A DNA stretch of 64,000 nt from assembly GCA_964479725.1 (NCBI GenBank), contig CAYZNF010000004.1, positions 12,002-76,001 of the forward strand, written 5' to 3'. Position numbers and translations under genes: made by a program. Shown here in pieces: positions 1 through 64,000 of the stretch. This stretch comes from an uncultured Candidatus Saccharibacteria bacterium (GTDB lineage Bacteria > Patescibacteriota > Minisyncoccia > Minisyncoccales > UBA10102). How positions within the stretch are numbered: position 1 is the first letter of the stretch; each line of letters starts with the position of its first letter. The notes under the pieces were generated by a model, which was given only the letters and a program-made list of their open reading frames with translations, had not been told where the DNA came from and ran no database searches.

Positions 1-1
1 T

Positions 2-1627
2 CTTATTTTAGCCTTTATTGGCTTAGCAACAATTTTAAGATTGCAAGAATATGCCAATAAAAAGCTCATAGTCAACCTCGTTGTTATTATCCTTTTAATG
101 AATTTCAGCAATGTCCTTGTCGGGTTAGTGGTAGATTTTTCTAATATTATTACCCACTACTTCTTTTCGGCCATCGGAAATTTTGGCGCAGGAAATTTCA
201 ACCAAGTTTTTAGCATTGGAAGCGACTACTTAAGCACTATCGGGTCAAGCGATGAATTGAGCTTGTTGGAAGTTTTTGCTCAAGGAGTTTCGTATGGCTT
301 AGTATCTGCCGTATTCTTCTTGGTATCCGCTCTAGTGTTTTGGGTAGTATTTCTTGTACTACTTCTTCGTATTATTGTTTTATGGCTTCTTGTCATCCTT
401 GCCCCCTTTGCTTTCGCGGCATATATTCTCCCCGGCACAAAGAAGTACTGGAGCCAATGGTGGCAAACTCTTATCCAATGGTCTATTGTCGGCATTCCTA
501 TCGGATTTTTTATGTATATTGCCGGACAAGTAATGGATCTTAAAACTACAGAATTGTTTCCTTCTTCACCCAATATAGGAGGCGAAATTGGGAATATGTC
601 CCAACTATTTACAGCTCTTCTGGCTCCTGCTACGGGCATCTTTCTGCTTATGATAGGTGTGGGAATAAGTATGGCATTTGCCCCGTCAGGAAGCCAAAAA
701 CTAATTGCCTGGGGAAAAGATACGGGCAGAAAAGCCGCGGCCAGAGCGGGCCGACCCCTTGGCGACACAGCAAGAACATGGGCGGCATCACGTCCCGGAT
801 TTAAAAAATTCGCAGAAAAACTCGAGCAAACATCTTCCAGAGACGCCAAAGGAATCGGGAAGTTTGGCATTCGCCCCATTGCTCCTCTTGCAAGATGGGC
901 AGGCAGACAACTGGGTTCTGAAAACCAAGCTACACTAAAGGGGCAAGTCGGCACAGCCGAAACTGCCGCGGCAAAATTGAGCGCAGAAACAGTGGCTTCA
1001 AGATTAAGAGGCAATATATCTGTTCAGGAAAAAATCGGCTACATTAATGCAAAAATTAAAAGCGGAGACATTGACGATCTCATAAAGGCAATGGGTCCTA
1101 ACGGAGAACAAGAGATCCAAAAAATTTATTCGAAAGCAAAGCAAATTGGACAACATAAAGATATCGAGGCAGCTATGCCTCACGCTATCACCCCTACGGA
1201 ATTGCAAGACGCTGCCGTAGCAACAGAAAAAGAAAGACTCATGACGGCAAATCCAGCATGGCCCGAACAACAAGCTGCTACTCAAGCAAGAAATACGGTT
1301 GGCCCCACACATATAATGCAAGAACGCACTAAACGACTAGCGAGCATGAAACCCGATAAAATCAGACAAATGTCAGAAAGCGCATTAAATCATCCGGACA
1401 CTCTCAATGCCATACTGCGAGGATGGGATGGCGGCCAAGTTTCAGCTCTTTATGTCCAACACGGATTTAAAGCTGTTAAGGCTTTGGAGGATAGACTAAG
1501 GGCCTTAACGCCCGCAGGGCAAACGCCGTTAGCTTGGCTCGAAGACCCCAACGGAGGAAATAATGCTAAGCTAGGATATTATTTGGGCAATACAGCTGGC
1601 CGCAGATTGGGTTTCACCATACAGTAA
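2..1627 (+). CDS. Polytopic membrane protein, VirB6/TrbL-like candidate of the T4SS-like cluster (5' end runs off the window)
   Basis: The frame is open from base 2, with no stop upstream of the TTG at 41. The N-terminal ~230 aa are consecutive hydrophobic helices (e.g. LVSAVFFLVSALVFWVVFLVLLLRIIVLWLLVILAPFAFAAYIL), followed by a ~300-aa soluble tail. Neighbours are PrgI-like, VirB4-like and pilin-like genes. Confidence 0.45.
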   Translation, partial: LILAFIGLATILRLQEYANKKLIVNLVVIILLMNFSNVLVGLVVDFSNIITHYFFSAIGNFGAGNFNQVFSIGSDYLSTIGSSDELSLLEVFAQGVSYGLVSAVFFLVSALVFWVVFLVLLLRIIVLWLLVILAPFAFAAYILPGTKKYWSQWWQTLIQWSIVGIPIGFFMYIAGQVMDLKTTELFPSSPNIGGEIGNMSQLFTALLAPATGIFLLMIGVGISMAFAPSGSQKLIAWGKDTGRKAAARAGRPLGDTARTWAASRPGFKKFAEKLEQTSSRDAKGIGKFGIRPIAPLARWAGRQLGSENQATLKGQVGTAETAAAKLSAETVASRLRGNISVQEKIGYINAKIKSGDIDDLIKAMGPNGEQEIQKIYSKAKQIGQHKDIEAAMPHAITPTELQDAAVATEKERLMTANPAWPEQQAATQARNTVGPTHIMQERTKRLASMKPDKIRQMSESALNHPDTLNAILRGWDGGQVSALYVQHGFKAVKALEDRLRALTPAGQTPLAWLEDPNGGNNAKLGYYLGNTAGRRLGFTIQ

Positions 1628-1638
1628 GGTGCAATATG

Positions 1639-1667
1639 AAAGGCGAAGACATGGTGTCTTCGCCTTT
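1639..1667. terminator. Bidirectional hairpin between convergent genes
   Basis: aaaggcgaagaca-tgg-tgtcttcgccttt gives a perfect 13-bp stem with a 3-nt loop. The A-run and T-run are built into the stem ends. It sits between the stop at 1627 (+) and the stop at 1672 (-). Confidence 0.6.
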
Positions 1668-1671
1668 GTGT

Positions 1672-1902
1672 TCAACCTCGAAGAGCTTTCGATCTTGTGG
1701 CTTTGGCGCGCTCCTCGTCGCGCTGTTTTGCCATTGCCATCGCCTCCTTTTCGATTTCTCGACGATGGCGGCCCTCCGTTCCCCCTCGCAACGCATCTAG
1801 GAGACGGGCGAAGGGGTTTTTGCGGATAGGGGGTTTCTGTATTTTCCCACCCCCTCCCGTCGTGGGATACCGACTCCACTTGCTGTTATTGCTATTGGCC
1901 AT
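1672..1902 (-). CDS. Hypothetical small basic protein (76 aa), second gene of the high-GC SPFH cassette
   Basis: The ATG lies 10 nt after the SPFH stop and is preceded by gaggga (tgagggatcaATG). The protein is MANSNNSKWSRYPTTGGGGKIQKPP...EERAKATRSKALRG and ends just before the 1639-1667 hairpin. I recognise no family. Confidence 0.35.
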   Translation of the reverse strand: MANSNNSKWSRYPTTGGGGKIQKPPIRKNPFARLLDALRGGTEGRHRREIEKEAMAMAKQRDEERAKATRSKALRG

Positions 1903-1909
1903 TGATCCC

Positions 1910-2914
1910 TCACTTCTTCCACAGCGCAACGAGCCTGGTAAACACGTCCTCCATGCCCCCGCCGCCGCTCGTTGATATGGCGGTGTAGGCTCCCTTATCA
2001 AGGGCTCTCTCAAGCTTGAGCAACTCCAGAGCTGCCGCCACGACCTGCGCCTTAAGCTCTGGATTTCCGGCTATTCTCTGCTGCATCTCCTGCTCAGTCA
2101 AACCCTCCGCCCGCCCCATTATCCGTACCGCCATGCCTATCGTTCTCTCGAGCACAGCGTCGGTCTCAGCGACGGCCTGGCTTCGCGACTCCCTTGCCTC
2201 CTGGAATCTCTTTGATGTCTGGAAATCCTGGATAGTCACTCCCTTCAATCTGATTCCTACTTCTGACAGCTTCTTGTCAAGCTCGTCTAGTCGATCGTCT
2301 GGAATACCGTCGGGACCCTTGCGAGCAACGTTGTAGCCTCCTCGCACCCTAAGCGCAATGTTGATAGATGCAAGGGAGCTTAGATAGCTTCGCAGCGCAT
2401 TGCCCACAAGATCCTTTACCAGAGCCCTCCAATCATCATGACCGTAGATAACGCGGTAAGCTCCTGGCAAGAATTTCCCGTCGCCGGCATCGTAGGAAGT
2501 GTCTGGATTCATCACCTCGACTTGCGCTGCGGCTCCAATTACCGTAGCGGCGGCATCGTCAAAGTCAATTGAGTTGGGATGCTTATCGTCGTCTAGAAGC
2601 GGGATTGTCTGTTGGCTCACCGGTACCCGAGCCCGCACTTTTTCGACCCCCGGAATAAGCCATGCTTTTCCGGGTCTCAAAATCCTGCTGTACCTCCCGT
2701 ACCATTCAATCACGCCACGTTCATCCTCTGGAACCTGGACGAACCCGGCAAGTTGTTTGGTTTCAAGCAAGAACAAGCCCAGCCCCGACAACCCAGACAC
2801 GCCCCCCAGGAGCAAAGCTCCCCAGCCGAACTGGGCTTTATCCACCATGAAGAGGGTAAGCAAGCCCAGGGCCGCAAGCGCCCCACCGAGGGCAAACAGA
2901 ATTATTTTTGCCAT
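1910..2914 (-). CDS. SPFH/band-7 (prohibitin/HflK-like) membrane-anchored protein
   Basis: It has an N-terminal TM region (IILFALGGALAALGLLTLF...), then VPEDERGVIEWYGRYSRILRPGKAWLIPGVEKV, which is typical of an SPFH domain start, and a coiled-coil C-terminus. GC is 58% in 2041-2140 against a ~44% backbone. Confidence 0.65.
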   Translation of the reverse strand: MAKIILFALGGALAALGLLTLFMVDKAQFGWGALLLGGVSGLSGLGLFLLETKQLAGFVQVPEDERGVIEWYGRYSRILRPGKAWLIPGVEKVRARVPVSQQTIPLLDDDKHPNSIDFDDAAATVIGAAAQVEVMNPDTSYDAGDGKFLPGAYRVIYGHDDWRALVKDLVGNALRSYLSSLASINIALRVRGGYNVARKGPDGIPDDRLDELDKKLSEVGIRLKGVTIQDFQTSKRFQEARESRSQAVAETDAVLERTIGMAVRIMGRAEGLTEQEMQQRIAGNPELKAQVVAAALELLKLERALDKGAYTAISTSGGGGMEDVFTRLVALWKK

Positions 2915-2952
2915 AGCACTTTCTCCCCGTCGTTTGTTGACTATCTATATAT

Positions 2953-2981
2953 AACATAGCAATAAATTACGCTTATGTCAA
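2953..2981 (-). promoter_or_regulatory. Sigma70-type promoter of the SPFH cassette
   Basis: The minus strand reads TTGACA-taagcgtaatttattgc(17)-TATGTT, followed by GGGGAG 8 nt before the ATG at 2914. Confidence 0.5.
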
Positions 2982-3032
2982 ATTTAGACGCGCTTCTTCT
3001 ACTTCACCTAGAAATGTCCTATAATTTACTAT

Positions 3033-3506
3033 ATGGCAAATCAATACACACAAGAGGAATTGTGGAAATTATACAAAACTTTGCCCGAGCAATTGCAAGA
3101 AGCAATATTTTCAGAAGAAACCGCAAATCATATTGGTAGCGCTTGTACCAAAAACCAGGTACCAGGCAACCTTGTTCCACGAGTTGCCGCTCAAGTAGGG
3201 GATGTTTTACTGGGCTTGGTGCGCCCTGAAGATTTTCAAAAAAACCTCGAAAAAGAAATTGGCTTGAAAAAAGCGGCAACGCAAGGGATTACCCAAGAGC
3301 TGAACCGATTTATTTTTTATCCGTTAAGATCTACTATTGATTCACTGCATAAAATAGGAAACGCGGAAAATTCTGCCATAAAGGAACAGCCCATCAAAGT
3401 TACCTCAACTTCCGACGCCAATATCAACACGGAACAATCCCAGGAAACCATAAAAAAGATCAAGCATTCCGGCCCCGATCCTTATCGAGAGCCTACTGAA
3501 GAATAA
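3033..3506 (+). CDS. Hypothetical protein (157 aa)
   Basis: Clean ORF MANQYTQEELWKLYKTLPEQLQEAIFSEETANHI... in tight spacing with the downstream T4SS-like genes. TATAAT at 3020-3025 ends only 7 nt before the ATG. Confidence 0.55.
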   Translation: MANQYTQEELWKLYKTLPEQLQEAIFSEETANHIGSACTKNQVPGNLVPRVAAQVGDVLLGLVRPEDFQKNLEKEIGLKKAATQGITQELNRFIFYPLRSTIDSLHKIGNAENSAIKEQPIKVTSTSDANINTEQSQETIKKIKHSGPDPYREPTEE

Positions 3507-3512
3507 TACACA

Positions 3513-3938
3513 ATGCGATTTCAAGTTCCCCAATTCATTGATAGGGAAGCAAGAATCATCGGCCCCCTTACATTCAAGCAATTCGGCTTTATCGGGGGTT
3601 CTGGAGCTTTTGCGTTTGTCTTATATTTCCTCATCCCGTTCCGCCCCCTTTTCCTCGTGCTTGCCCTTATCCTAATTTCCTTTGGACTAAGTCTCGCTTT
3701 TGTACGGGTAAACGGCCGATCTTTTCCTGAATACGTCCTCAACATGCTCCGCTTTAGCACGGGAACCAAAATATACGTGTGGAAAAAAGAAGACGCAAAA
3801 TATTCGGCCGAAGCAAAACAACAGCCAGGCTCCGCAACCACGGAAACATCCGAAACCCTTTCTGCCGTTACCCTTACCAGCAAAAGCAAAATACGGAATT
3901 TGTCCAGTCAAGTAGAAACCCAAAATCCAAACGCGTAA
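3513..3938 (+). CDS. PrgI/VirB3-like small membrane protein
   Basis: MRFQVPQFIDREARIIGPLTFKQFGFIGGSGAFAFVLYFLIPFRPLFLVLALILISFGL matches the PrgI-family pattern as I recall it (VPqFid-e-kiiGpLT-kQf followed by two TM helices). It sits 3 nt upstream of the VirB4 N-terminal ORF. Confidence 0.6.
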   Translation: MRFQVPQFIDREARIIGPLTFKQFGFIGGSGAFAFVLYFLIPFRPLFLVLALILISFGLSLAFVRVNGRSFPEYVLNMLRFSTGTKIYVWKKEDAKYSAEAKQQPGSATTETSETLSAVTLTSKSKIRNLSSQVETQNPNA

Positions 3939-3941
3939 ACA

Positions 3942-4589
3942 ATGGCCGAAACCCCAACCCAACAATTTTTGCCGGTAAGCGAAATAAAACAGGGCGTGCT
4001 AATACTTCGAGATCGGGGGATCCGAGGAGTTTTGATGGTTTCTTCCCAAAACTTTGCTCTAAAATCGCAAGAAGAACAGGACGCCACAATTTACCAATTC
4101 CAAAACTTCTTGAATTCCTTGGATTTTCCCCTCCAAATTACCATGCAATCCCGACGCCTCAACATTACCGGATATTTAGACTACATTAAAAACCTCGAGG
4201 CACAGCAAACAAGCACTCTCCTGCAAAAACAAACCGAGGATTACCGAAAATTCATCAGCCAGCTTATCAGTTCGGGGTCTATTTTGGCAAAAAGCTTTTT
4301 TGTAGTAGTGCCGTTTAGCGGTTTGGAGGTTATTTCCACCGGATCAAAGCAAAGCCTGCTAAAGCGCGGAACACAGGGTTTAGGAAAAATTTCAGATGAG
4401 CAGTTTGAAAGAATGCGATCCCAACTTTGGCAAAGGATGGAGTATGTTGCCCTGGGTTTGAGAAGGGCAGGACTGCATGCCGTACCACTAAACACGGAGG
4501 AGTTAATAGAACTGCTTTGGAGCTGGCATCATCCCCAGGAAGCAGAGGTGGGATATTTCCCATCCATTCCGCCAGAACTTATTACATGA
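3942..4589 (+). CDS. VirB4-like T4SS ATPase, N-terminal segment (215 aa) of a split gene
   Basis: FLPVSEIKQGVLILRDRGIRGVLMVSSQNFALKSQEEQDATIYQFQNFLNSLDFPLQITMQSRRLNI is the characteristic N-domain of Gram-positive/CPR-type VirB4 proteins of ~800 aa. The stop TGA (4587-4589) lies inside the left inverted repeat. Confidence 0.7.
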   Translation: MAETPTQQFLPVSEIKQGVLILRDRGIRGVLMVSSQNFALKSQEEQDATIYQFQNFLNSLDFPLQITMQSRRLNITGYLDYIKNLEAQQTSTLLQKQTEDYRKFISQLISSGSILAKSFFVVVPFSGLEVISTGSKQSLLKRGTQGLGKISDEQFERMRSQLWQRMEYVALGLRRAGLHAVPLNTEELIELLWSWHHPQEAEVGYFPSIPPELIT

Positions 4590-4624
4590 TTCGAATCTAC
4601 GAATGTATTCGAATGCTACGAATA
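4585..4624. repeat. Left inverted repeat of the cassette
   Basis: catgattcgaatctacgaatgtattcgaatgctacgaata. Internally it is two ~18-nt direct subrepeats (attcgaat-c-tacgaat gt attcgaat-gc-tacgaat). Confidence 0.8.
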
Positions 4625-4638
4625 GACAATGCAAAAAC

Positions 4639-5025
4639 ATGAAAGAAACGGTGCTTTATCCAGAATTGTCCTACGCCTTGACCGGAATTTTATTCTTAAC
4701 ACATAACGAACTCGGAAAATACTGCAATGAACAGCAATACGGTGATAAAATTGAAAGTGAATTACACAAGGCCAACATAGTGTATGAAAGAGAGAAAATT
4801 CTGCCAATTTCTTTTGAGGGAGAACAAGCGGGACGAAACAAAGTTGATTTCCTTGTAGCCGACAGGATCATCTTGGAACTAAAAGCGAAACGAATCCTTA
4901 CAAGAGAAGATTATTATCAAGTAAAACGCTATTTAGCCGCACTTGATAAACAACTGGGAATACTAGTAAACTTCAGAGCAGAATACATTGTCCCAAAAAG
5001 AATTCTTCACCCGAGTCATATATGA
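4639..5025 (+). CDS. GxxExxY-family protein (PD-(D/E)XK nuclease-fold superfamily), 128 aa
   Basis: MKETVLYPELSYALTGILFLTHNELGKYCNEQQYGDKIESELHKANIVYEREKILPISFEGEQAGRNKVDFLVADRIILELKAKRILTREDYYQVKRYLAALDKQLGILVNF contains the GxxExxY motif (GKYCNEQQY) and the D...ELK core. I use the start at the ATG at 4639 rather than 4603, which lies inside the repeat. Confidence 0.65.
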   Translation: MKETVLYPELSYALTGILFLTHNELGKYCNEQQYGDKIESELHKANIVYEREKILPISFEGEQAGRNKVDFLVADRIILELKAKRILTREDYYQVKRYLAALDKQLGILVNFRAEYIVPKRILHPSHI

Positions 5026-5035
5026 TTATTTCTTT

Positions 5036-5081
5036 TATTTGTAGCATTCGAATTCATTCGTAGATTCGGATTATCCCCATG
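5036..5081. repeat. Right inverted repeat of the cassette, running into the ATG of the VirB4 C-terminal ORF
   Basis: tatttgtagcattcgaattcattcgtagattcggattatccccatg. It is nearly identical to the solo copy at 51432-51482. Confidence 0.8.
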
Positions 5082-6848
5082 AAACTGCCTTTCTTAAAAA
5101 AACAGCAAATCCCCGAACAGATTTTTTCGACAGCCAAAGTTACCGCGAACGACATTATCGCGCCTTCTTCGATTCGGGTAAATCCTGAATACCTTGAAAT
5201 CAGCGGGCGCATTGCAAAATCATTTTTCGTTTTCTCCTACCCAAGATACCTCACCGACGTTTGGCTCGCCCAGGCAATAAACCTCGACGTTCCTCTCGAC
5301 ATATCTTTATTTATCCATCCCATTGACACGGCCATGATAATGCGCCACTTAAGAAAACGCATTACCGAGGTCCAGGCGGAAATAATGGAAAGGGAAGACA
5401 AGGGACTAATCCGCGATCCCCAGCTTGAAATTGCCTTCCAGGACTTGGAGAGTTTGCGAGATCGCCTGCAAACAGCCCAGGAAAGAATGTTTAAGCTTGG
5501 AATTTACATCACCGCTTATGGCGAAACGCACGATCAGCTTCGCGAAATCGAAACAAACCTGCGCTCCATATTTGAGTCAAAACTTATTTACATAAAACCT
5601 GCCGTTTATCAGCAAAAAGAAGGTTTCAATTCCTGCCTGCCCTACGGCAAAGATTTGCTCAATGTCCACACCGATCTCAATACCGAACCCTTGTCTTCTG
5701 TTTTCCCGTTTGTGTCGTTTGACTTGAGCTCGAACGAAGGAATTTTGTACGGTATAAACCAGCACAACAACTCACTCATACTTTTTGACCGCTTTTCTTT
5801 GCCGAACGCAAACGAAGTGATCTTTGCCGCTTCTGGCGCTGGAAAAAGCTACTACGCTAAACTGCAAATCATCCGCTCGTTAATGACGGGGGTGGATGTG
5901 ATTGTGCTTGATCCTGAAAACGAATACAAAACTTTAAGCCAGGCGGTAGGAGGAAGCTTTTTTAATATTTCTTTGGGTTCTGAAAACCACATTAACCCGT
6001 TTGACCTGTCCCAGCCGCGCGAAGATGAATCCGCCGCCGATGTGCTTCGCAGCAACGTCATTAACCTGGTAGGGCTTATGCGTATTATGCTCGGCGGGCT
6101 AACCCCCGAAGAAGATGCCATTATGGACAGGGCAATTGCCGAAACATACGCGGCAAAAGACATAACTGCCAACTCTGATCCCGCCGCCTGGCCAGATAAA
6201 ATTCCTTTAATGCAGGATCTTGAAGAGGTTTTGCGCACCATGGATCGCGCAGATTCTTTGGTGGAACGCCTTCAGCGCTTTACAAAGGGAACATACTCTA
6301 ATTTCTTTAACCAGCCCACAAATATTTCGCTCGACAATAACCTACTTGTTTTTGGCATACGGGAAATGGAAGACAGCCTGCGGCCAATGGCAATGTACAC
6401 TATTATGCGATACATTTGGAGCAAGGTGCGCTCGGAACTCAAAAAGAGGGTGCTTGTGCTCGACGAAGCCTGGTGGATAATGCAAACGGAAGACGGAGCT
6501 TCGTTCCTTTTCGGGGTTGCCAAACGAGCGCGAAAATATTGGCTTGGAGTTACCACCATTACCCAGGATGTGGGGGATTTTATGCGCTCTGAATACGGAA
6601 AACCCATTATCACCAACTCCTCCATACAAGTGCTAATGAAACAATCGCCCGCGACGATTGACCTGGTCAAAAAATCCTTCAGTCTTACTGGTATGGAAAA
6701 AAATATGCTTCTGGAAACAAATACCGGCGAAGGAATATTTTTTGCCGGCCAAAAGCATGTGGCAATACGCGTCATCGCCTCGCCCTTAGAGCACAGCATA
6801 GTAACCACCAACCCGGAAGAAATACAAGGACTTAAGGAAGCGTTGTAA
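5079..6848 (+). CDS. VirB4-like T4SS ATPase, C-terminal segment (589 aa) of a split gene
   Basis: IAPSSIRVNPEYLEISGRIAKSFFVFSYPRYL (VirB4 middle-domain signature), Walker A AASGAGKSY and Walker B VLVLDEAW. It is in the same reading frame (coordinate mod 3 = 0) as 3942-4589. Confidence 0.8.
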   Translation: MKLPFLKKQQIPEQIFSTAKVTANDIIAPSSIRVNPEYLEISGRIAKSFFVFSYPRYLTDVWLAQAINLDVPLDISLFIHPIDTAMIMRHLRKRITEVQAEIMEREDKGLIRDPQLEIAFQDLESLRDRLQTAQERMFKLGIYITAYGETHDQLREIETNLRSIFESKLIYIKPAVYQQKEGFNSCLPYGKDLLNVHTDLNTEPLSSVFPFVSFDLSSNEGILYGINQHNNSLILFDRFSLPNANEVIFAASGAGKSYYAKLQIIRSLMTGVDVIVLDPENEYKTLSQAVGGSFFNISLGSENHINPFDLSQPREDESAADVLRSNVINLVGLMRIMLGGLTPEEDAIMDRAIAETYAAKDITANSDPAAWPDKIPLMQDLEEVLRTMDRADSLVERLQRFTKGTYSNFFNQPTNISLDNNLLVFGIREMEDSLRPMAMYTIMRYIWSKVRSELKKRVLVLDEAWWIMQTEDGASFLFGVAKRARKYWLGVTTITQDVGDFMRSEYGKPIITNSSIQVLMKQSPATIDLVKKSFSLTGMEKNMLLETNTGEGIFFAGQKHVAIRVIASPLEHSIVTTNPEEIQGLKEAL

Positions 6849-6852
6849 TGCC

Positions 6853-7338
6853 ATGGCAACAGAAACGGCCAATGCCCCGCCTGAATCCAAAACAAACCCG
6901 GAAACTCCAGGACAAAAAGAAAACCAGCCGCAAGGACAAGCTCAAGAAAATTCCGAAGCAACGGAAAGGGCAAGGGTAAGAATTACAGATCCGGATTTTT
7001 TAATCATGCTCATTATTGCCGGAACCGTCGACTTGATGGACATCTTTTTGGAACCGCTTGCTTTTCTGATTTTCCCTAAAATCCTCGGCCTTATTTTAGA
7101 TACCATCACGATCCCAATTATAAATCTCTGGATTTACTCGAGGACTAATCGCCTGGAACAAGCAAAAGCAAAAATGTCCCGCGGCTCCTCTTCTGACACA
7201 AGAAGAGGATACCAAGGAAAAGTATTAAGAAAGATACTCGGCAAAGCAGGCCTCACTTTTCTTTTAGAAGCCATCCCGATAGTAGGCATTTTCCCTTTTT
7301 TGACCTGCCGCGTGCTTTCGACCCTAAAAGAAAAATGA
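6853..7338 (+). CDS. Hypothetical membrane protein (161 aa) in the T4SS-like cluster
   Basis: It has a Q/E/N-rich N-terminus followed by hydrophobic helices (FLIMLIIAGTVDLMDIFLEPLAFLIFPKILGLILDTITIPIINLWIY; GLTFLLEAIPIVGIFPFLTC). It lies 4 nt after VirB4. Confidence 0.5.
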   Translation: MATETANAPPESKTNPETPGQKENQPQGQAQENSEATERARVRITDPDFLIMLIIAGTVDLMDIFLEPLAFLIFPKILGLILDTITIPIINLWIYSRTNRLEQAKAKMSRGSSSDTRRGYQGKVLRKILGKAGLTFLLEAIPIVGIFPFLTCRVLSTLKEK

Positions 7339-7352
7339 TATAATTTTACAAC

Positions 7353-8681
7353 ATGCTCCGTATCTCCGCAAAACATATTTTCTTTTTCGCGCTCTTCGCT
7401 GTCGTGGCTTTTTTTATAGTCTCTTCCCCCGCTGTTTTTGCGCAAGAAAATCAACAATCTATTACCTGCGAAGAGGGTAAAAAGGCCTGCGGCGGAAATT
7501 GTATTTCAAGCGATTCGCTTTGTCTCAATCTTCAGTATCCATCTTTTGGAGGATATGATCTCAATACCGACCAAGAGCTCACCAAGTTCATTGCCTGGCT
7601 ATACTATTTCATGATTGGCATTGGCGGATTACTTGCATTTTTGATGCTCACCTGGGGAGGAGTTCAATACCTGTCTTCTGCGGGAAATCCGGGGCAAATT
7701 GGCGACGCAAAAGACAAAATCCAAAAAGCAATTTTCGGCCTTTTGCTTTTGCTTTCCTCCGTTCTCATAATCCAATTGTTCAATCCCGATCTAACTACAA
7801 TCCAAGACCCCGGGGCAAAGAAACTCAAGCTTGGAACGTTTGAGCTAACAAAATCCACCGTAGACATTCCCTACCGATGCAGTCCAATAAGCGGAGCTAA
7901 TCACACCTACCAATGCGCGGGAGGGATTCCTTTGGCTCCAGGACAACCTCCTGTAGATTTTGACTCTTCTGATGTCATTCCTGCTACTTCCTCAGACCCA
8001 GCACATATTTGGCCTGAAGCATGTGTTATAACCTCTGCTCCGGGCGAATACAGCAAATCGTGTGTTGCTGAGTGTTTCCGAGCCGGAGGAGAATCTGGCA
8101 AATTTGGAGAGACGTGGACTTGTTGCAACGTTCCTTCGCCAGAAAATCCGGGGCCCTCAACAACATGCCGCGGTATAACCAAAGGAGAGAACGAAGTTTT
8201 GGTTAGTCTGACTCCTAGTAGCCAAAACATACAACCCCTCATGCAATCTGTTATGCAAAGAGTAAAAGGAGTTTATGCATGCGATGACGTGGGTTGCAGA
8301 ATAGCTTGGAGAAAGTTTACGAAAAGCACTCCAAGGATTTGCAGATCAATTGTTGAGGATTCTTCTCCGTCAAACGATGACTTGTGCACGCAAATAGGTT
8401 CTCTTTATATCAATCAAAATGCAGTTGTCGTGCTTTACGAGGAAGAGAACTATAATGAAAATTATCCGATTTCAGAAAACAAAAAAAGAGTATGCTTTGA
8501 CAACACAAGCGGGAACAATAAACTCATTGCTAATCTAGACGCTATTCAAATTGCCCCTTCCTTTGTCAAAAACAATGGATGGAATGAAGACGCAGATAGT
8601 ATAAAAATACTAGACCCAGGAGATCCGGAAATCGAAAAAGTTTGTCAAAACAAATTTGAAGAGACTCTTCCTTCTCTCTAG
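7353..8681 (+). CDS. T4SS-pilin-like (VirB2/TrbC-type) domain fused to a ~290-aa cysteine-rich C-terminal domain
   Basis: Signal peptide (FFFALFAVVAFFIVSSPAVFAQ), then FIAWLYYFMIGIGGLLAFLMLTWGGVQYLSSAGNPGQIGDAKDKIQKAIFGLLLLLSSVLIIQLFNPDL. This is the two-helix pilin pattern I associate with the CPR T4SS pilin family. By my count the C-terminal part holds 14 Cys. Confidence 0.55.
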   Translation: MLRISAKHIFFFALFAVVAFFIVSSPAVFAQENQQSITCEEGKKACGGNCISSDSLCLNLQYPSFGGYDLNTDQELTKFIAWLYYFMIGIGGLLAFLMLTWGGVQYLSSAGNPGQIGDAKDKIQKAIFGLLLLLSSVLIIQLFNPDLTTIQDPGAKKLKLGTFELTKSTVDIPYRCSPISGANHTYQCAGGIPLAPGQPPVDFDSSDVIPATSSDPAHIWPEACVITSAPGEYSKSCVAECFRAGGESGKFGETWTCCNVPSPENPGPSTTCRGITKGENEVLVSLTPSSQNIQPLMQSVMQRVKGVYACDDVGCRIAWRKFTKSTPRICRSIVEDSSPSNDDLCTQIGSLYINQNAVVVLYEEENYNENYPISENKKRVCFDNTSGNNKLIANLDAIQIAPSFVKNNGWNEDADSIKILDPGDPEIEKVCQNKFEETLPSL

Positions 8682-8690
8682 AAAAAGGGA

Positions 8691-8718
8691 AGAGGCGCCG
8701 CCCAAAAGCGGTGCCTCT
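8691..8718. terminator. Hairpin between convergent genes
   Basis: agaggcgccgc-ccaaaa-gcggtgcctct, with one G:T pair in the stem. On the minus strand it is followed by cccttttt. Confidence 0.5.
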
Positions 8719-8727
8719 TGCTTGTTG

Positions 8728-9447
8728 CTACTTCAAGCTTGCAAACTTCAGCCCCCCAGCACCAGAGGGCACGAGAACGGGCCGAAACTTGCCGAAAAGC
8801 TCGCGATGCGCGAGATCCGGGACGCCCAGAGCGTGTACGTCTCCCTTCATCACCACGCATCCGTAACAGCCCTTCACGCCGTGATAGACCTGCTCCTCGG
8901 GAATCTCCACTCCCGAGAAACGAGGCTGTTGGCTTAGCCACCGGGCCACAATCAGCAACTCTTCAGGATTGCCCCCAATACTAGGCCCACCGACTAACAT
9001 CATGGCCTGGTCTACGTACCCCCAATTGGCCAACAGCACAAAAGAGGCTACGATTTGACCGCCGTCCTCCATACTATCGACAGGATCACCGGGAAGCTGA
9101 TACACCCCAGGTGTAATACCCCATTTTTCCCGCGCCACCGTATCGGCATACGGCCCCGTATAGACCGTGGCCTTGCCCTTCACAGAGGTGGAGGGGAGGA
9201 CTTGCTCCTGGAGCACGACAGCGCTGTCGCTCGCGGGAACCTTCTGCTCCTGGACGACGATGTCGCCTGGCGCAGCGACCGCCGCGTTGTTGTCGGTCGG
9301 CGCAAGAGCGACCGTCTCCCTTGAGAAAAAGCCTGTCGCAACCGACAAGAACAACCCCACGGCTAGCAGGAACAGTACCACGGCCCCGGTTGGGAAAACC
9401 CAGCCGGGTAGTCTGGCCGGTCTACGAACTTGGGTAGTGGTAGTCAT
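8728..9447 (-). CDS. Hypothetical membrane-anchored protein (239 aa), high-GC cassette
   Basis: I chose the start at MTTTTQVRRPARLPGW because AAGGAGGG sits 6 nt upstream (gcAAGGAGGgttaaaATG). It has one TM helix (VVLFLLAVGLFLSVATGFF). GC is 55% in 9001-9100. I recognise no family. Confidence 0.55.
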   Translation of the reverse strand: MTTTTQVRRPARLPGWVFPTGAVVLFLLAVGLFLSVATGFFSRETVALAPTDNNAAVAAPGDIVVQEQKVPASDSAVVLQEQVLPSTSVKGKATVYTGPYADTVAREKWGITPGVYQLPGDPVDSMEDGGQIVASFVLLANWGYVDQAMMLVGGPSIGGNPEELLIVARWLSQQPRFSGVEIPEEQVYHGVKGCYGCVVMKGDVHALGVPDLAHRELFGKFRPVLVPSGAGGLKFASLK

Positions 9448-9515
9448 TTTAACCCTCCTTGCATTGTCTGTTCTTACCGACAACCGAATTAGGAAAAGAG
9501 CAACTCTCTACTTTC

Positions 9516-9544
9516 ATTAGACCAGCTCCCGGGGATATTGTCAA
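9516..9544 (-). promoter_or_regulatory. Sigma70-type promoter of the 8728-9447 cassette
   Basis: The minus strand reads TTGACA-atatccccgggagctgg(17)-TCTAAT. Confidence 0.45.
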
Positions 9545-44271: not shown

Positions 44272-44288
44272 CCAGTCGGTGCTTTCAT

Positions 44289-44365
44289 GTCCTCGTAGCT
44301 TAGTGGATAGAGCGCTTCCCTCCCTCTGGGCCGTACGGCCCGACGGGCCGGAGGCCGAAGGAAAG
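44289..44365 (+). pseudogene. tRNA-Arg 5'-half fragment with a 33-nt GC-rich insertion in the anticodon loop
   Basis: 44289-44323 is identical to 44614-44648 (acceptor 5' strand, D arm, 5' anticodon stem, loop CTCC). Next comes ctctgggccgtacggcccgacgggccggaggcc, then gaaggaaag, which matches the tRNA's gaaggaaga at 8 of 9 positions. Homology is then lost. Confidence 0.7.
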
Positions 44366-44374
44366 CTAAATTCC

Positions 44375-44623
44375 ATGTTTTGCGTATATTTACTTCAAAG
44401 CGAAAAAGATAACAGTTTTTATATAGGCCAAACTAATGATTTGGAAAAAAGACTTGCTCGGCATAATAACGGTTTCGTGGTTTCTACAAAAAAGAAGATT
44501 CCTTGGTGTTTGCTTGGGTATGAAAAGTATCAGTCGCGCAATGAGGCGCGATGGCGCGAACACGAATTGAAACAAAGTTATTCGAAAAAGAGAAAGTTTA
44601 TTGAAAGTTTTTTGTCCTCGTAG
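44375..44623 (+). CDS. GIY-YIG nuclease-domain miniprotein (82 aa)
   Basis: MFCVYLLQSEKDNSFYIGQTNDLEKRLARHNNG...WCLLGYEKYQSRNEARWREHELKQ has the GIY...YIG, R and E motif order. The last 10 nt, including the stop, overlap the 5' end of the intact tRNA-Arg. Confidence 0.75.
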   Translation: MFCVYLLQSEKDNSFYIGQTNDLEKRLARHNNGFVVSTKKKIPWCLLGYEKYQSRNEARWREHELKQSYSKKRKFIESFLSS

Positions 44624-44686
44624 CTTAGTGGATAGAGCGCTTCCCTCCGAAGGAAGAGGTCAGAGGTTCAAATCCTCTCGAGGACA
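44614..44686 (+). tRNA. tRNA-Arg (anticodon CCG), 73 nt, no encoded CCA
   Basis: Manual cloverleaf: GTCCTCG TA GCTT AGTGGATA GAGC G CTTCC CTCCGAA GGAAG AGGTC AGAGG TTCAAAT CCTCT CGAGGAC A. Confidence 0.85.
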
Positions 44687-44744
44687 CCCCGCGTGATCCG
44701 CCGGCCGCAAACCGGCGATTGAGCAAACCGAAACCATCTCGCGC

Positions 44745-46422: not shown

Positions 46423-46625
46423 AGGGCATGTATGGGTAAAGTTGACCTGAGTAGTTACGAAAACACCTTCTAGCTCTTACGATGTGCCTCAATTGCTCTT
46501 GAGGGTTCCAAGCAGACGGCTTCTCCCGAACATCAGAGTGCTATGGTGTGCCTCCTTTTTCCACTGGTCACGCCACTCCTTATATATATTGCTTGCCGTT
46601 TTTGCATATTGCTAAACATGTCATG

Positions 46626-46760
46626 CTAACCGAATTGAATTCCGCAACAGCAGGGGCAGATTCCATCAAATGGGCTCTCCTTATCCCAAGGAACGAAATC
46701 AAGAGCATATCCGCAAGCCGGACACAGATTGGTATTGTTGTAAATGGAATTATTCATCAT
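46626..46760 (-). CDS. Possible zinc-ribbon miniprotein (43-44 aa; not in the ORF track)
   Basis: Manual translation gives (M)MNNSIYNNTNLCPACGYALDFVPWDKESPFDGICPCCCGIQFG. The two Cys pairs CPAC...CPCC are spaced like a zinc ribbon. It starts 6 nt after the vapC stop. I see no SD. Confidence 0.3.
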   Translation of the reverse strand: MMNNSIYNNTNLCPACGYALDFVPWDKESPFDGICPCCCGIQFG

Positions 46761-46766
46761 TTAATT

Positions 46767-47174
46767 TCAATATTTTTCAAAATTGCTTTTGCGCGGAGGA
46801 TATACGGCAATGTCTTTCATCGGAAAATCTTCCAAGTTGTTTGTAATAAGAGTTAAGCCGTGTTGTTTGGCTTGGCTGGCCAAAAAACAATCCAGAAGCT
46901 TTGTTCTGGAAGATGATAGGAATTTCTTTCTATACATTCCCGCGCTGCGGGCGGTGCTTTCTTCGATGGGAAGAATGGGGAAAGCGCGGGCTAGTTTCTC
47001 GAATGCTTTTTTCTCTGGAGCACAAGCTTTTGCCATAAATTCGGCAATCGTTATTACAGAGAGAACTACCGCCCCGTGCTTAATCGCAGTTTTCACAAAT
47101 GAAGCATCTGGCTCATGGCCGTCTATGGCCAAAATGCACACATTAGTATCCAATAGAAACCGGTGGGTATTCAT
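46767..47174 (-). CDS. vapC: PIN-domain toxin (VapC-like)
   Basis: MNTHRFLLDTNVCI...TIAEF...LLDCFLASQA...LITNNLEDF carries the PIN acidic residues. Its ATG overlaps the antitoxin stop (ATGA). Confidence 0.75.
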   Translation of the reverse strand: MNTHRFLLDTNVCILAIDGHEPDASFVKTAIKHGAVVLSVITIAEFMAKACAPEKKAFEKLARAFPILPIEESTARSAGMYRKKFLSSSRTKLLDCFLASQAKQHGLTLITNNLEDFPMKDIAVYPPRKSNFEKY

Positions 47175-47434
47175 TGATCTTGATCTTCGCGCATTTTTCT
47201 CTGCCATTCAATTGCTTTCTCTTTGGTCCATCGGGGGTTTTTTGCGTTTCCGACAACTTCGTTTGCAAGCAGTCCAAGGTCTTGTTTTGTTTTGCACTCT
47301 TTCATTAGGCGTTCTGTCGCTGCGCGTCGAAGATAGGCGCCTAAACTTTCTTTTGTGTTGTGTCTCGCTTGTTCGATTTTTTCTCTAAGGTCCTGCGGAA
47401 GGAGGATTTGGGTTCGTATCAGTTTTTTATTCAT
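47171..47434 (-). CDS. vapB: Ribbon-helix-helix-type antitoxin (VapB-like)
   Basis: LIRTQILLPQDLREKIEQARHNTKESLGAYLRRAATERL. It is 87 aa and translationally coupled to the PIN gene. Confidence 0.6.
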   Translation of the reverse strand: MNKKLIRTQILLPQDLREKIEQARHNTKESLGAYLRRAATERLMKECKTKQDLGLLANEVVGNAKNPRWTKEKAIEWQRKMREDQDQ

Positions 47435-47474
47435 ACATCATAATTATACATCATATGAAGAAAGTTGGTCAAGG

Positions 47475-48242
47475 CTATTGTTTCTTTTCCCCGAAGAATT
47501 GGCTAAGGGATTTGATGCCTTCCATAAACTCTATGGGCAGGGCGAATATGACTGTTTTTGAGGGATCGGGGTTTATTTTTTCGATTGTTTGCAGAGTTCT
47601 TAACGATATTCCCGCGGGAACCGAACTTAGAAGAGTTGCGGCTTTTGAAAGTTTTTCTGCTGCAGTAAACTCTCCTTCTGCCTGGATTATAATGGCGCGG
47701 CGTTCCCTTTCAGCTTCCGCCTGCCTTGCCATGACTCTCTTCATATCCATGGGCAATTCAATGTCTTGTATTTTGATTGATGAAATATCAATTCCCCAAG
47801 GATCCGTTGCCACATCAACAATTTTTTTCATTTCACCTGCAATCTTGTCGCGTTCAGACAGCAGGAAGTCTAATTCAACTCCGCCGATAATATCCCGCAG
47901 GGTGGCTTGGGCGTATAAAGCAACGGCGCTTATGAAATTTTGAATTTCCAGCACAGCTTTCTCGGCCTCTTCTACTTTAAAGTACACGACAGCGTTAATG
48001 CCCACGGTTACATTGTCTTTGGTGATAACCTCCTGTTTTGGAATATCGACAGTCGCAATTCGCAGGTCCACTTTAATCATTCGCTGTATGCCAATAAATA
48101 TCCAGGTAAGCCCTGGCTTTCTTGTGCCGGAATATTTGCCCAGGGTAAGCACGACCCCTCTTTCATATTGGTCTATGACCCGTATGCCCAAAACTCCAAA
48201 CAGGAAAACTATGCCTCCAATAACGTAAAGCGCAATGTCCAT
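47475..48242 (-). CDS. SPFH/band-7 stomatin-like (slipin) protein, backbone GC
   Basis: N-terminal TM helix, then IDQYERGVVLTLGKYSGTRKPGLTWIFIGIQRMIKVDLRIATVDIPKQEVITKDNVTV and AEAERERRAIIIQAEGE. Confidence 0.8.
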   Translation of the reverse strand: MDIALYVIGGIVFLFGVLGIRVIDQYERGVVLTLGKYSGTRKPGLTWIFIGIQRMIKVDLRIATVDIPKQEVITKDNVTVGINAVVYFKVEEAEKAVLEIQNFISAVALYAQATLRDIIGGVELDFLLSERDKIAGEMKKIVDVATDPWGIDISSIKIQDIELPMDMKRVMARQAEAERERRAIIIQAEGEFTAAEKLSKAATLLSSVPAGISLRTLQTIEKINPDPSKTVIFALPIEFMEGIKSLSQFFGEKKQ

Positions 48243-48342
48243 GAGATTTATGTTAGGGTTCTTCTTATACTTTCTCTATAGCAAACCCGCGCCTTAACTG
48301 CAAAACATGACGATAATGTGATAAGATAAGCTCGAACTTTTT

Positions 48343-54794: not shown

Positions 54795-54804
54795 GGACTC
54801 CCTC
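54781..54804 (+). terminator. Perfect 11-bp hairpin enclosing the stop codon of the SLOG-like gene
   Basis: gagggagtccc-ta-gggactccctc, followed by ccttcttt. Confidence 0.5.
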
Positions 54805-61907: not shown

Positions 61908-61936
61908 TTGACTATGGCGAGTATTCTTTGTATAAG
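61908..61936 (+). promoter_or_regulatory. Promoter of the 70-aa membrane-protein cassette, overlapped by a 10-bp inverted repeat
   Basis: TTGACT-atggcgagtattctttg(17)-TATAAG. The inverted repeat gagtattctt (61919-61928) / aagaatactc (61943-61952) brackets the -10. GGAGG lies 6 nt before the ATG. Confidence 0.5.
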
Positions 61937-61970: not shown

Positions 61971-62183
61971 ATGGACTTTGTTGCGTTCCTGGCTCTAGCA
62001 GGTCTTTTGATGGTTCTTGCAGGTATTACTCTATTCTGGAGCAGGGAGGGGCAAACCAATAGCCCGCGCCTGCATTCACTAGGCGCCTGGCTGGGCGCAA
62101 TGGGTATTTGGATGTACTTAGTCGCAATATTGGATTTGTTGACAGCCATCTTGGAAAGACTCGATCGCTTACCCGTATCATAA
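61971..62183 (+). CDS. Hypothetical two-TM miniprotein (70 aa), GC-shifted cassette
   Basis: MDFVAFLALAGLLMVLAGITLFW...LGAWLGAMGIWMYLVAILDLLTAIL. GC is 55% in 62001-62100. It has its own promoter, SD and terminator. Confidence 0.55.
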   Translation: MDFVAFLALAGLLMVLAGITLFWSREGQTNSPRLHSLGAWLGAMGIWMYLVAILDLLTAILERLDRLPVS

Positions 62184-62268: not shown

Positions 62269-62307
62269 AACTACGAAATCTTGCATATGCAGTAAATCGT
62301 AGTAGTA
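62269..62307. repeat. Palindromic element with a GCATATGC core (left copy)
   Basis: aactacgaaatcttGCATATGCagtaaatcgtagtagta. The arms actacga/tcgtagt can pair. Confidence 0.55.
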
Positions 62308-62314
62308 TGGATTT

Positions 62315-62887
62315 GTGAGTAAGTACAAATATTATTTGAAGAAACCTAAATCTGAAATTACCAAAGATATCCTTATATGGATTATGGCAGGAGGGTTGAT
62401 CGCGATTGCGGCTACTTCCCCCTATTTTGGCACCAACCTTGTGAGAGAATTTCGAAAGCGTAAACATTACGATAGAAAGAAAGTATATGATACATTCTTC
62501 AGACTGCAACGACAGGGATATCTTCAGATTACGAAGCGCAATCGCCAGATTTATATTTCTCTTACCGAGGAAGGCAGAAAGAAAGCGGGAAGGTTTCAGA
62601 TTAATTCTTTAGAAATCCATAAGCCAAAACACTGGGATGGAAAATGGAGGATTGTATTGTTTGATATCGAAAATTCAAAAGACATCAAGAGAGAGGCTTT
62701 GCGCGGAAAATTGAAGGAGTTAGGTTTTTACCTTTACCAAAAGAGCGTATGGATACACCCCTTTGAGTGCAATGATGAGGCAGAGCTTTTAAAAGAGTTT
62801 TTCGGTCTTACCGATAGCGAAATTTGTCTTATTGTTGCTGAAAGAATCTCAAACGAGAAGGTGGTCAAGGATTACTTCGGGCTATAA
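62315..62887 (+). CDS. PaaX-like / Cas2-fold regulatory-domain protein with an N-terminal TM segment (190 aa)
   Basis: ILIWIMAGGLIAIAATSP (TM), wHTH-like VYDTFFRLQRQGYLQITKRNRQIYISLTEEGRKKA, then WDGKWRIVLFDIENSKDIKREALRGKLKELGFYLYQKSVWIHPF, the PaaX central-domain pattern. GTG start. Confidence 0.5.
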   Translation: MSKYKYYLKKPKSEITKDILIWIMAGGLIAIAATSPYFGTNLVREFRKRKHYDRKKVYDTFFRLQRQGYLQITKRNRQIYISLTEEGRKKAGRFQINSLEIHKPKHWDGKWRIVLFDIENSKDIKREALRGKLKELGFYLYQKSVWIHPFECNDEAELLKEFFGLTDSEICLIVAERISNEKVVKDYFGL

Positions 62888-62898
62888 TTTTAAACGCG

Positions 62899-62937
62899 AC
62901 TACTACGAAAATATGCATATGCGGTTTTTAGTAGTAC
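62899..62937. repeat. Palindromic element with a GCATATGC core (right copy)
   Basis: actactacgaaaatatGCATATGCggtttttagtagtac, related to 62269-62307. Confidence 0.55.
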
Positions 62938-62975
62938 TTTAGTTAAAAGCTGGCGATTGAAAATATAGGGGGAAA

Positions 62976-64000
62976 ATGGTAATGTTGAGAATAAATATGG
63001 AAGCGAATTTCCCCAAATTTGAAGAGAAAGTTTTGAAGCAGTGGCGTGCATCGCAAGCTTTTGAAAAGTCGGTTGAGCGGAGAAAAAATGGACCGCGGTT
63101 CGTATTTTATGAAGGCCCGCCCACAGCCAACGGAAAGCCTGGTATACACCACGTGCTGGCCCGTTCGTTTAAGGATATTGTTCTGCGCTACAAAACTATG
63201 CGCGGATTTTTTGTTGAAAGAAGAGGCGGATGGGATACCCATGGCCTTCCTGTTGAATTGCAAGTTGAAAAACGGCTTGGGCTTCAATCCAAGCGCGATA
63301 TTGAAAAATACGGCATAGCCAAGTTCAATAAGGAGTGCAAAAAATCCGTTTGGATGTATTTGCAGGAATGGGAAAGCCTAACCGACCGTATCGGATTCTG
63401 GATAGATCTTGAAAAATCATATATTACCTATGAACCTTCCTATATGGAAAGTTTGTGGGCGATTATAAAGAAGTTCTGGGAAAAGGGTTTGCTTTACAAA
63501 GATTACAAAGTAGTACCCTATTGCCCTCGCTGTGGCACCGCCCTTTCATCCCATGAATTAGCGCAAGGGTATAAAACCGTAAAAGATCCTGCGGTATATG
63601 TGAAATTTCAGATTCGAAAGGAGGATCTTCCCAAACTATCAACTACAAACTGCCAATTGCCAGCTGCCTCCATTTTGGCTTGGACCACAACTCCGTGGAC
63701 ATTACCCTCAAATATTGCCCTAGCAGTAAAGGAGGATATTGAGTATTCTCTGGTTAAGGCGGGCGAAGAATACTATATACTCGCAACCGATAGGGTTAAA
63801 GCAGTATTTGGCGAAAAGTTCGAAAGTGTAAAAACTTTCAAAGGGAAGGATCTTTTAGGCATCCGATACGCCCCTTTATATGAATTTGATAAGGCGGAAG
63901 CGGGAAAGAAGATTTGGGAGGTGATTCCAGCCGATTTTGTTACCACAGAAGACGGAACAGGAGTTGTGCATACCGCCGTAGCTTATGGCGTAGACGATTT
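62976..64000 (+). CDS. ileS: Isoleucine--tRNA ligase, N-terminal part (runs off the window; not in the ORF track)
   Basis: Manual translation gives ...MEANFPKFEEKVLKQWRASQAFEKSVERRKNGPRFVFYEGPPTANGKPGIHHVLARSFKDIVLRYKTMRGFFVERRGGWDTHGLPVE... (HIGH region PTANGKPGIHHV), then CPRCGTALSSHE. An alternative start lies at 62997. Confidence 0.85.
   Translation, partial: MVMLRINMEANFPKFEEKVLKQWRASQAFEKSVERRKNGPRFVFYEGPPTANGKPGIHHVLARSFKDIVLRYKTMRGFFVERRGGWDTHGLPVELQVEKRLGLQSKRDIEKYGIAKFNKECKKSVWMYLQEWESLTDRIGFWIDLEKSYITYEPSYMESLWAIIKKFWEKGLLYKDYKVVPYCPRCGTALSSHELAQGYKTVKDPAVYVKFQIRKEDLPKLSTTNCQLPAASILAWTTTPWTLPSNIALAVKEDIEYSLVKAGEEYYILATDRVKAVFGEKFESVKTFKGKDLLGIRYAPLYEFDKAEAGKKIWEVIPADFVTTEDGTGVVHTAVAYGVDD

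Follow-up and report, generated by a model that had tools for sequence, protein, structure and literature searches.

GC-rich patches beside the replication origin of a Wildermuthbacteria genome probably have several origins, including fast-evolving residents of type IV secretion system slots

A stretch of 64,000 nucleotides (contig CAYZNF010000004.1 of assembly GCA_964479725.1), referred to here as the window, carries six segments (c1 to c6, Table 1) that a first-pass annotation, made from the letters alone, had described as GC-shifted expression cassettes. The results presented here suggest, with a probability of roughly 0.7, that these GC-rich patches are several phenomena: fast-evolving resident genes (c1 and c2), a native gene (c5), foreign DNA (c4) and small open reading frames (ORFs; c3 and c6). 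Taken as a whole, the window is ordinary genome mosaicism together with clade-wide GC-rich genes at fixed slots of a type IV secretion system (T4SS) locus. Judging from exact protein matches, it is the chromosome around the replication origin of a groundwater Candidatus Wildermuthbacteria metagenome-assembled genome (MAG) that belongs to the Candidate Phyla Radiation (CPR/Patescibacteria). The window carries a T4SS set of Gram-positive type (TrbL/VirB6, PrgI, a TraC-like protein, VirB4, a T4SS pilin and a coupling protein), which adjoins the origin-side genes, ordered rnpA-yidC-jag beside dnaA-dnaN, and is followed by housekeeping genes, tRNA-Arg(CCG) and the transfer-messenger RNA (tmRNA).

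The GC content of the window was 45.8%, and 45.3% without the cassettes, about two points above the backbone value of 43-44% given in the first-pass annotation, whose hand counts of 100-nt samples were exact in seven of eight cases (56% instead of 55% at 62001-62100). Each gene was compared with 54 backbone genes, which had a GC content of 0.452 ± 0.022 and a GC content at third codon positions (GC3) of 0.461 ± 0.042. The result showed that the c2 gene (GC 59.3%, z 6.6, GC3 0.672), the SPFH gene of c1 (GC 55.7%, z 4.9, GC3 0.615) and the c5 gene (GC 54.4%, z 4.3) deviated most strongly, followed by c4b (52.0%, z 3.2) and c4a (51.9%, z 3.1); the 76-aa ORF downstream of the c1 SPFH gene had a GC content of 56.7%. 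The c6 ORF (49.3%, z 1.9) did not differ significantly from the backbone, and the c3 ORF (59.6%), with just 51 codons, is too short for a firm test. No backbone window of the same length was as GC-rich as c1, c2, c4 or c5, and 1.8% and 15% of such windows matched c3 and c6, respectively. Hence four to five of the six proposed GC-shifted segments are real outliers (c1, c2, c4 and c5 clearly so), c3 is a weak one and c6 is not significant. The GC excess was then apportioned between amino-acid content and synonymous sites by means of the GC content expected from each gene's own protein and backbone codon usage (Table 1). The synonymous excess was clear in c1, c2 and c4a, borderline in c4b and absent in c5 and c6. 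Three of the four strong patches (c1, c2 and c5) appear to be native, and at least half of their GC excess comes from amino-acid composition.

Related T4SS loci were collected by a VirB4 scan with one genome per species, which gave 80 loci at 63-82% identity. Their common gene order was TrbL, a slot, g3033, PrgI, TraC, VirB4 and, further on, Jag, YidC, RnpA and DnaA. Most relatives that cover the slot between TrbL and g3033, where c1 is located, carried a minus-strand gene in it, and an iterative hidden Markov model (HMM) search seeded with the window's SPFH protein revealed an SPFH homologue in the same slot and on the same strand in 16 loci. The GC content of the slot SPFH gene exceeded that of its own backbone in 14 of the 15 measurable cases (mean +2.4 points, p = 0.0015). 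Mean pairwise identity among the slot SPFH proteins was 26-39%, compared to 66-73% for VirB4, and in one pair of loci (L054 and L065) VirB4 was 94% identical and SPFH just 55%. In six close relatives (L002-L006 and L008), the slot held non-homologous genes with a GC content of 60-67% in loci of 46-53%, whose products have an N-terminal transmembrane (TM) helix followed by Ala/Pro/Glu/Arg-rich sequence. The c1 protein itself belongs to the SPFH/Band 7 family (PF01145, Band_7, 57.4 bits against a cut-off of 23.6, residues 60-257) and resembles the HflK/C and slipin scaffolds in its N-terminal TM segments and coiled-coil-like C-terminal tail. It scored only 24.7 bits on the HflK equivalog against a cut-off of 159, and it is T4SS-linked, unlike the window's ordinary slipin (Table 1). 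A hairpin at about 1640-1666 is common to c1 and the convergent TrbL gene. The basic 76-aa ORF lies directly behind the SPFH gene, is equally GC-rich, has its own GAGGGA Shine-Dalgarno sequence and is recorded with its exact sequence as a called protein; c1 is probably a two-gene unit of SPFH and this ORF. The exact-sequence look-up of the c1 SPFH protein returned no record.

The c2 gene, which is convergent with the T4SS pilin gene and shares the hairpin 8690-8719 with it, is preceded by TTGACA-N17-TCTAAT at 9544-9516. Homologues of c2 were found only in two Wildermuthbacteria loci (L005 and L008), again beside pilin; the link is a motif of about 45 residues common to three ORFs that are convergent with a pilin paralogue and have a GC content of 55-56% against a locus background of about 48-49%. 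More broadly, GC-rich genes for anchored proteins stood beside pilin in eight relatives (L004, L005, L006, L008, L012, L017, L040 and L061). A clade-wide enrichment, concentrated at the T4SS slots, was also seen: within the related loci, each of the three backbone-GC bins showed a higher GC content in ORFs without a counterpart elsewhere than in conserved ones (p = 0.0006-0.026), and the 36 strong GC outliers, which occurred in 23 of 61 loci, had a GC3 higher by 13.9 points.

By slot and strand, the positions of c1 and c2 correspond, in the genomes compared, to conserved accessory genes of the CPR T4SS locus. The two genes would thus occupy two fixed accessory slots of this locus, one between TrbL and g3033 and the other beside the pilin gene, and across the clade both slots appear to hold GC-enriched genes for very fast-evolving, N-terminally membrane-anchored proteins. 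Part of the GC enrichment of the slot genes comes from a high Ala, Pro, Gly and Arg content of their products, and part lies at synonymous sites. Rather than captures from a host, c1 and c2 would be genes for lineage-resident envelope or T4SS accessory proteins, which were either inherited with rapid divergence or exchanged at their slot among members of the clade. That CPR genomes, Saccharibacteria among them, have a conserved T4SS region accompanied by small, poorly conserved secreted or membrane proteins has already been described (PMC7427843). In the account of the region given there, VirB4, VirB6/TrbL, PrgI and pilin are kept together with small proteins bearing an N-terminal signal or anchor, and c1 and c2 look like such companions; what the present results show is the existence, in Wildermuthbacteria and Parcubacteria, of two fixed slots with GC-enriched, extremely fast-evolving genes, one slot often holding an SPFH gene. 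The slot proteins are candidates for cell-surface or host-contact functions.

The clade-wide GC pattern at the T4SS slots might be caused by recombination bias or by replacement within the clade. A tentative proposal, which we hold to be possible though rather doubtful, is that the two slots encode hypervariable anchored proteins and that their GC enrichment is the signature of recombination-driven turnover (GC-biased gene conversion or intra-clade replacement) at determinants of host interaction or DNA uptake; if so, the slot proteins could be specificity factors for presumed episymbionts. A stronger version, in which c1 and c2 are not inherited and the T4SS slots, like the tRNA-Arg flank, are hot spots where genes are replaced time and again by transfer between CPR lineages that differ in GC content, the GC excess being supplied by higher-GC CPR donors or by GC-biased gene conversion, seems unlikely. 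It would explain why close relatives carry non-homologous occupants (SPFH or low-complexity anchored proteins), why the pair of pilin and c2-like gene occurs in varied places and orientations, why GC3 is about 14 points higher in the GC-rich outliers, why VirB4 and SPFH diverge so differently between L054 and L065, and why the tRNA-Arg flank differs among the window, L085 and L090. However, all slot occupants share one architecture, an N-terminal TM anchor and a linker, with SPFH in 16 loci, so that descent with rapid divergence fits at least as well, and neither flanking repeats nor recombinases were found at the slots.

Several observations weigh against residence of c1 and c2. The SPFH gene of the window is shifted by about +10 points in GC and +15 points in GC3, compared to a mean of +2.4 points in its same-slot homologues, and its product is only 20-31% identical to theirs in alignments of at least 80 residues. 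Because of this low identity and the far larger GC shift, a foreign SPFH gene could still have replaced the slot occupant in the window. As for c2, the interval from pilin to jag lacks such a gene in the two closest species (L002 and L003), the family link covers a domain of about 45 residues only, and a positional analogue is a weaker claim than homology.

The c4 islet differs from these residents. Its dinucleotide delta* was 0.217, against 0.057 ± 0.022 for the backbone, a value reached by none of 196 backbone windows of the same length, which makes it the top outlier of the window. A Markov-model profile placed its boundaries at about 44690 and 46400-46550, and c4a, the middle stretch and c4b have one common dinucleotide signature. 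Comparison with five related species (L083, L085, L087, L089 and L090) showed a common order of MurE, a small gene, NIF3 and SpoU (not in every case), tRNA-Arg(CCG) and a permease. The permease directly follows tRNA-Arg in L083, L087 and L089, whereas 3.65 kb lie between them in the window. No homologue of c4a, the 48-aa ORF or c4b was present at the locus in the five species, and the rest of the insertion, of backbone-like composition, was likewise absent between tRNA-Arg and the permease in them. An independent contig from the Logan assembly of SRR12113422 (L174) equals window 44688-46101, so that its first nucleotide lies no more than 2 nt from the tRNA-Arg 3′ end. This start at the junction of tRNA and islet suggests a branch in the assembly graph and hence strain heterogeneity, and together with the end of a contig of a sibling MAG at 46377, inside c4, it hints at such heterogeneity at the islet.

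Three features make the c4 segment read as acquired DNA: it adjoins a tRNA gene, it is missing from the five relatives, and no other part of the window deviates as far in dinucleotide signature; on these grounds it is the sole segment that looks imported. It would be a foreign stretch of about 1.8 kb that abuts the 3′ end of tRNA-Arg(CCG), inside a 3.65-kb strain-specific insertion, and may have entered as a decayed integrative element or by recombination after DNA uptake. In common with tRNA-adjacent genomic islands, it starts at a tRNA 3′ end, has an atypical signature and GC content, is missing from relatives, carries orphan genes beside a toxin-antitoxin pair, and occupies a tRNA flank that is variable in other species. 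Unlike them, it has no integrase and no repeat of the tRNA 3′ end at its far edge, and its foreign part is just 1.8 kb long. The reading as an import is weakened accordingly by an att-site search, which found no att-like repeat around the islet, by the absence of an integrase or recombinase from the islet and from every scanned ORF of the window, and by the failure to identify a donor. Searches with c4a gave three distant matches among 1.84 billion representatives, all on short metagenome contigs, and the one relative whose contigs were inspected lies on DNA of 32-34% GC. No match to plasmids or phages was obtained with the islet (blastn, tblastn), nor to viral contigs in scans with c4a and c4b, and a single-sequence AlphaFold model of c4a (pLDDT, the predicted confidence score, 38.7) was too poor to use. 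Within the insertion, Pfam matches identified the PIN gene and the slipin gene (Band_7). The latter, of the slipin-type SPFH, has backbone GC, stands beside the PIN toxin module and is found on a separate 2.5-kb contig in the sibling MAG. The 3′ flank of tRNA-Arg(CCG) carries a GC-rich orphan ORF of 91 aa and an ORF of 102 aa in L085 (11751-12026), and an LDcluster4 (SLOG-type) gene and a 62-aa ORF in L090 (12906-13906). This flank is a recurrent insertion site in Wildermuthbacteria.

For c5, a PolX synteny scan of metagenome contigs revealed a locus (L096) with the window's own gene order, GreA, paralogue, HD, orthologue, LPG synthase and PolX. The orthologue in L096 occupies the same slot, is 44-46% identical to c5 and has a GC content of 53.1% on a contig of 44.4%, with ordinary GC3; a paralogue of backbone GC is present in L096 and L102. 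A metagenome pattern scan for c5 itself yielded nothing, and the relatives surfaced solely through the synteny scan. These findings are consistent with c5 being a native member of a small lineage-specific family of alpha/beta proteins, with its orthologue in the same slot, and its GC excess is due to amino-acid composition, the synonymous part being just +1.4 points. Against this stands the patchy distribution of c5, which is missing from L085, L099, L103, L106, L122 and L145. The protein had been called SLOG-like; no Pfam, NCBIfam or PADLOC match was obtained, and a PDB profile search gave nothing. The LDcluster4 protein of the L090 tRNA flank was considered as a relative of c5 and rejected (hhalign probability 4%). 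A single-sequence AF2 model (pLDDT 43.6) showed an alternating beta/alpha pattern only, and its best Foldseek E-value of 0.015 was uninformative.

The c3 segment is an insert that adds about 230-280 bp to the spacer separating MurE from a conserved small gene; the gap between these two genes was 20-70 bp in five related loci without c3, compared to 298 bp in the window. No c6-like gene was present between ArgS and the PaaX-like gene in L095. Both inserts are roughly 200-280 bp long and have a Shine-Dalgarno sequence. The delta* of c6 was not significant and the GC content of c3 was weakly so, and the RNA-folding z scores (-2.4 for c3 and -3.7 for c6) are dominated by the terminators and do not decide between coding sequence and RNA. 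Each of the two segments may be a small ORF, or a small transcript, that is specific to the lineage, is unremarkable in composition and has a promoter and a terminator of its own.

The first-pass annotation had attributed the segments to repeated capture of single genes from a higher-GC donor, with the host of an episymbiont as the obvious candidate, and had named orthologues at the same loci, of equal GC across the lineage, among the findings that would speak against this. GC-shifted relatives at the same loci were found for c5 (L096), in the direction of the shift, though with a smaller size, for c1, and in positional form for c2. As a single explanation, repeated capture does not hold: only c4 looks acquired, and c1, c2 and c5 have same-slot relatives. 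That each of the six segments was acquired recently and independently, from a single higher-GC donor or from several, is very unlikely. The raised GC and GC3 of c1, c2 and c4, the absence of c3, c4, c5 and c6 from at least some related loci and the near-orphan state of the cargo are what such captures would leave: a word-indexed search of 5.8 billion proteins with the c1 and c2 proteins gave self-matches only, and c4a has its three distant matches. The same-slot homologues or analogues across the clade largely refute this account for c1, c2 and c5; the shifts of c5 and c6 are accounted for by amino-acid content; and no homologue from a higher-GC donor or host was obtained for any cargo protein in the searches run, the relatives of c2 and c5 being found in CPR-like loci only and the inspected c4a relative on GC-poor DNA. 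In dinucleotide signature, c4 stands apart from c1, c2 and c5, which makes a single donor unlikely. Thus, a GC-rich patch in a CPR MAG need not be host-derived DNA, and it was comparison with related genomes, not composition alone, that separated the native genes from the true islet.

A cassette-type mobile unit, integron-like or other, built of modules of promoter, gene and hairpin, had been offered as the alternative to capture, and it is scarcely credible. Several units do combine a promoter-like site and a Shine-Dalgarno sequence with a hairpin at the end, and the hairpins at 8690-8719, 43271-43294 and 54781-54804 proved real and outrank every other terminator-like site of their regions. 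Two of the five promoters reported as near-consensus, 2981-2953 (10/12) and 43501-43473 (11/12), passed a consensus scan and those at 9516-9544 and 44745-44773 did not, direct reading having shown that their -10 elements (TCTAAT at 9516-9521 and TAATAA at 44768-44773) lack invariant positions; the scan left out 60-64 kb, where the fifth (c6, Table 1) was read directly. However, promoter, Shine-Dalgarno sequence and terminator are what a normal monocistronic gene has, and equally good promoter-like sites precede backbone genes (the dnaA region, tmRNA, greA and 47472-47443). The 12 boundaries have no common 13-mer or longer word, the orientation is mixed, and no att-like repeat, integrase, transposase or other recombinase was detected, nor was any conserved structured end common to the units here and in relatives. 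A single 12-mer was common to the 12 boundary regions, as predicted by chance on our own estimate (about 0.4 expected); these are observed counts only, the random control being unusable as its sampled regions overlapped. The statement that the window lacks an integrase or transposase was borne out in every scanned ORF, and two selfish-type nuclease genes are present. Integron cassettes are promoterless and co-oriented, end in attC sites and need IntI. The units resemble them as small single-gene units between conserved genes and differ in having their own promoter-like sites, in lying on both strands and in lacking common ends and an integrase. Pfam, PHROGs, NCBIfam and PADLOC searches with all cargo proteins matched SPFH only.

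It is also highly improbable that the GC-rich stretches are mis-joined pieces of other organisms, introduced in assembly or binning. In the sibling MAG (GCA_016188315.1), two contigs match window 1-9968 and 31995-46377 at 99.97-99.98% identity. Their ends at 9968 and 46377, a 127-bp difference inside c1 and the start of the Logan contig at the junction of tRNA and islet could be taken as signs of a chimera. Yet in this second assembly c1, c2 and c3 are joined to their neighbours on either side as in the window, and c4 on its left side, the exact c5 protein is recorded on two contigs, the segment ends fall in intergenic spacers with shared bidirectional terminators, and equivalent genes stand at the same places in relatives. 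As to the 127-bp difference, sibling contig JACPIB010000025.1 lacks window 1943-2069 within the SPFH gene, so that the product annotated there is a fusion of 371 aa with the overlapping frame 1672-2013; the ends show no microhomology, which leaves a strain variant or an assembly error as the explanation.

Table 1. Coordinates of the six GC-rich segments and of other features of the window; GC excess is given in points as amino-acid part / synonymous part
Feature	Coordinates	Strand	Description	GC excess
c1 segment	1628..2990	-	54.4% GC; between TrbL/VirB6 and the g3033-PrgI-TraC-VirB4 operon	+5.9 / +4.6
c1 SPFH gene	1910-2914	-
c1 76-aa ORF	1672-1902	-
c1 promoter-like site	2981-2953	-
PDDEXK_3 nuclease gene	4603..5025	+	Pfam 85 bits; GC 37%, z -3.7; between TraC and VirB4
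c2 segment	8690..9550	-	gene 8728-9450; 240-aa N-terminally anchored protein; convergent with T4SS pilin gene	+8.0 / +6.3
c3 segment	43268..43505	-	51-aa Pro-rich ORF 43293-43448; GTG start; AAGGAGG Shine-Dalgarno sequence
c3 promoter	43501-43473	-	11/12
c3 terminator	43294-43271	-
GIY-YIG gene	44366-44623	+	within unit 44283..44648; Pfam GIY-YIG; 36% GC
tRNA-Arg(CCG)	44613..44689	+	ARAGORN and Rfam; anchor at left edge of islet
c4 islet	44690..~46500	both	GC 51.3% against backbone 45.3%; right edge ~46400-46550
c4a	44788-45540	+	250 aa	+2.7 / +4.0
48-aa ORF of c4	45550-45696	+
c4b	45973-46422	-	149 aa	+3.7 / +3.1
Rest of strain-specific insertion	46501..48342	-	backbone-like composition; delta* 0.060
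Zn-ribbon ORF	46626-46760		in 46501..48342
PIN	46767-47207		in 46501..48342
Putative antitoxin	47171-47434		in 46501..48342
Slipin/SPFH	47475-48242		in 46501..48342
c5 segment	54150..54810	+	gene 54186-54794; 202 aa; alpha/beta protein; GAGGAGG Shine-Dalgarno sequence; hairpin 54781-54804	+7.8 / +1.4
c6 segment	61905..62245	+	70-aa two-TM ORF 61971-62183; TTGACT-N17-TATAAG at 61908-61936; hairpin and T-run ~62208-62245	amino-acid part only

Two nuclease genes, both GC-poor and both outside the proposed cassettes, resemble free-standing homing-endonuclease-type genes in being sporadic single-gene insertions at varying intergenic sites. The PDDEXK_3 gene behaves like a selfish single-gene insertion; a homologue was found in three of 80 relatives, there between PrgI and TraC and also GC-poor. 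The GIY-YIG gene is bracketed by a 41-nt direct repeat (44283-44323 and 44608-44648) that corresponds to the 5′ half of tRNA-Arg, a duplication of target-site tRNA sequence which it shares with homing-endonuclease-type genes. The upstream partial tRNA copy has a 26-nt GC-rich hairpin in its anticodon loop, and the unit was absent from the five relatives.

The cumulative GC skew of the window had its minimum near 12.6-13 kb (region about 11250-13000), beside rnpA-yidC-jag and dnaA-dnaN. This is consistent with a replication origin, and the T4SS locus is therefore origin-proximal in this clade. A search of Rfam over the whole window gave tRNA and tmRNA only. Two strong palindromes of the form GTGTNACCWGGTNACAC lie at 9573-9610 and 9666-9692, between the c2 promoter and jag; four matches to this form were seen, a number reached in none of 100 shuffles, and the palindromes may be a candidate operator or an origin-proximal binding site. 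A large sensory block at 31557-38043, conserved in reduced form in relatives, comprises a HAMP protein, a FIST protein, a PAS protein, a 920-aa multi-GAF histidine kinase and two response regulators. Finally, 35-nt palindromic repeats at 62270-62304 and 62902-62936 bracket a GC-poor PaaX_M/PadR-like gene (62315-62887), homologues of which occupy the corresponding place in L095 and a different one in L089.

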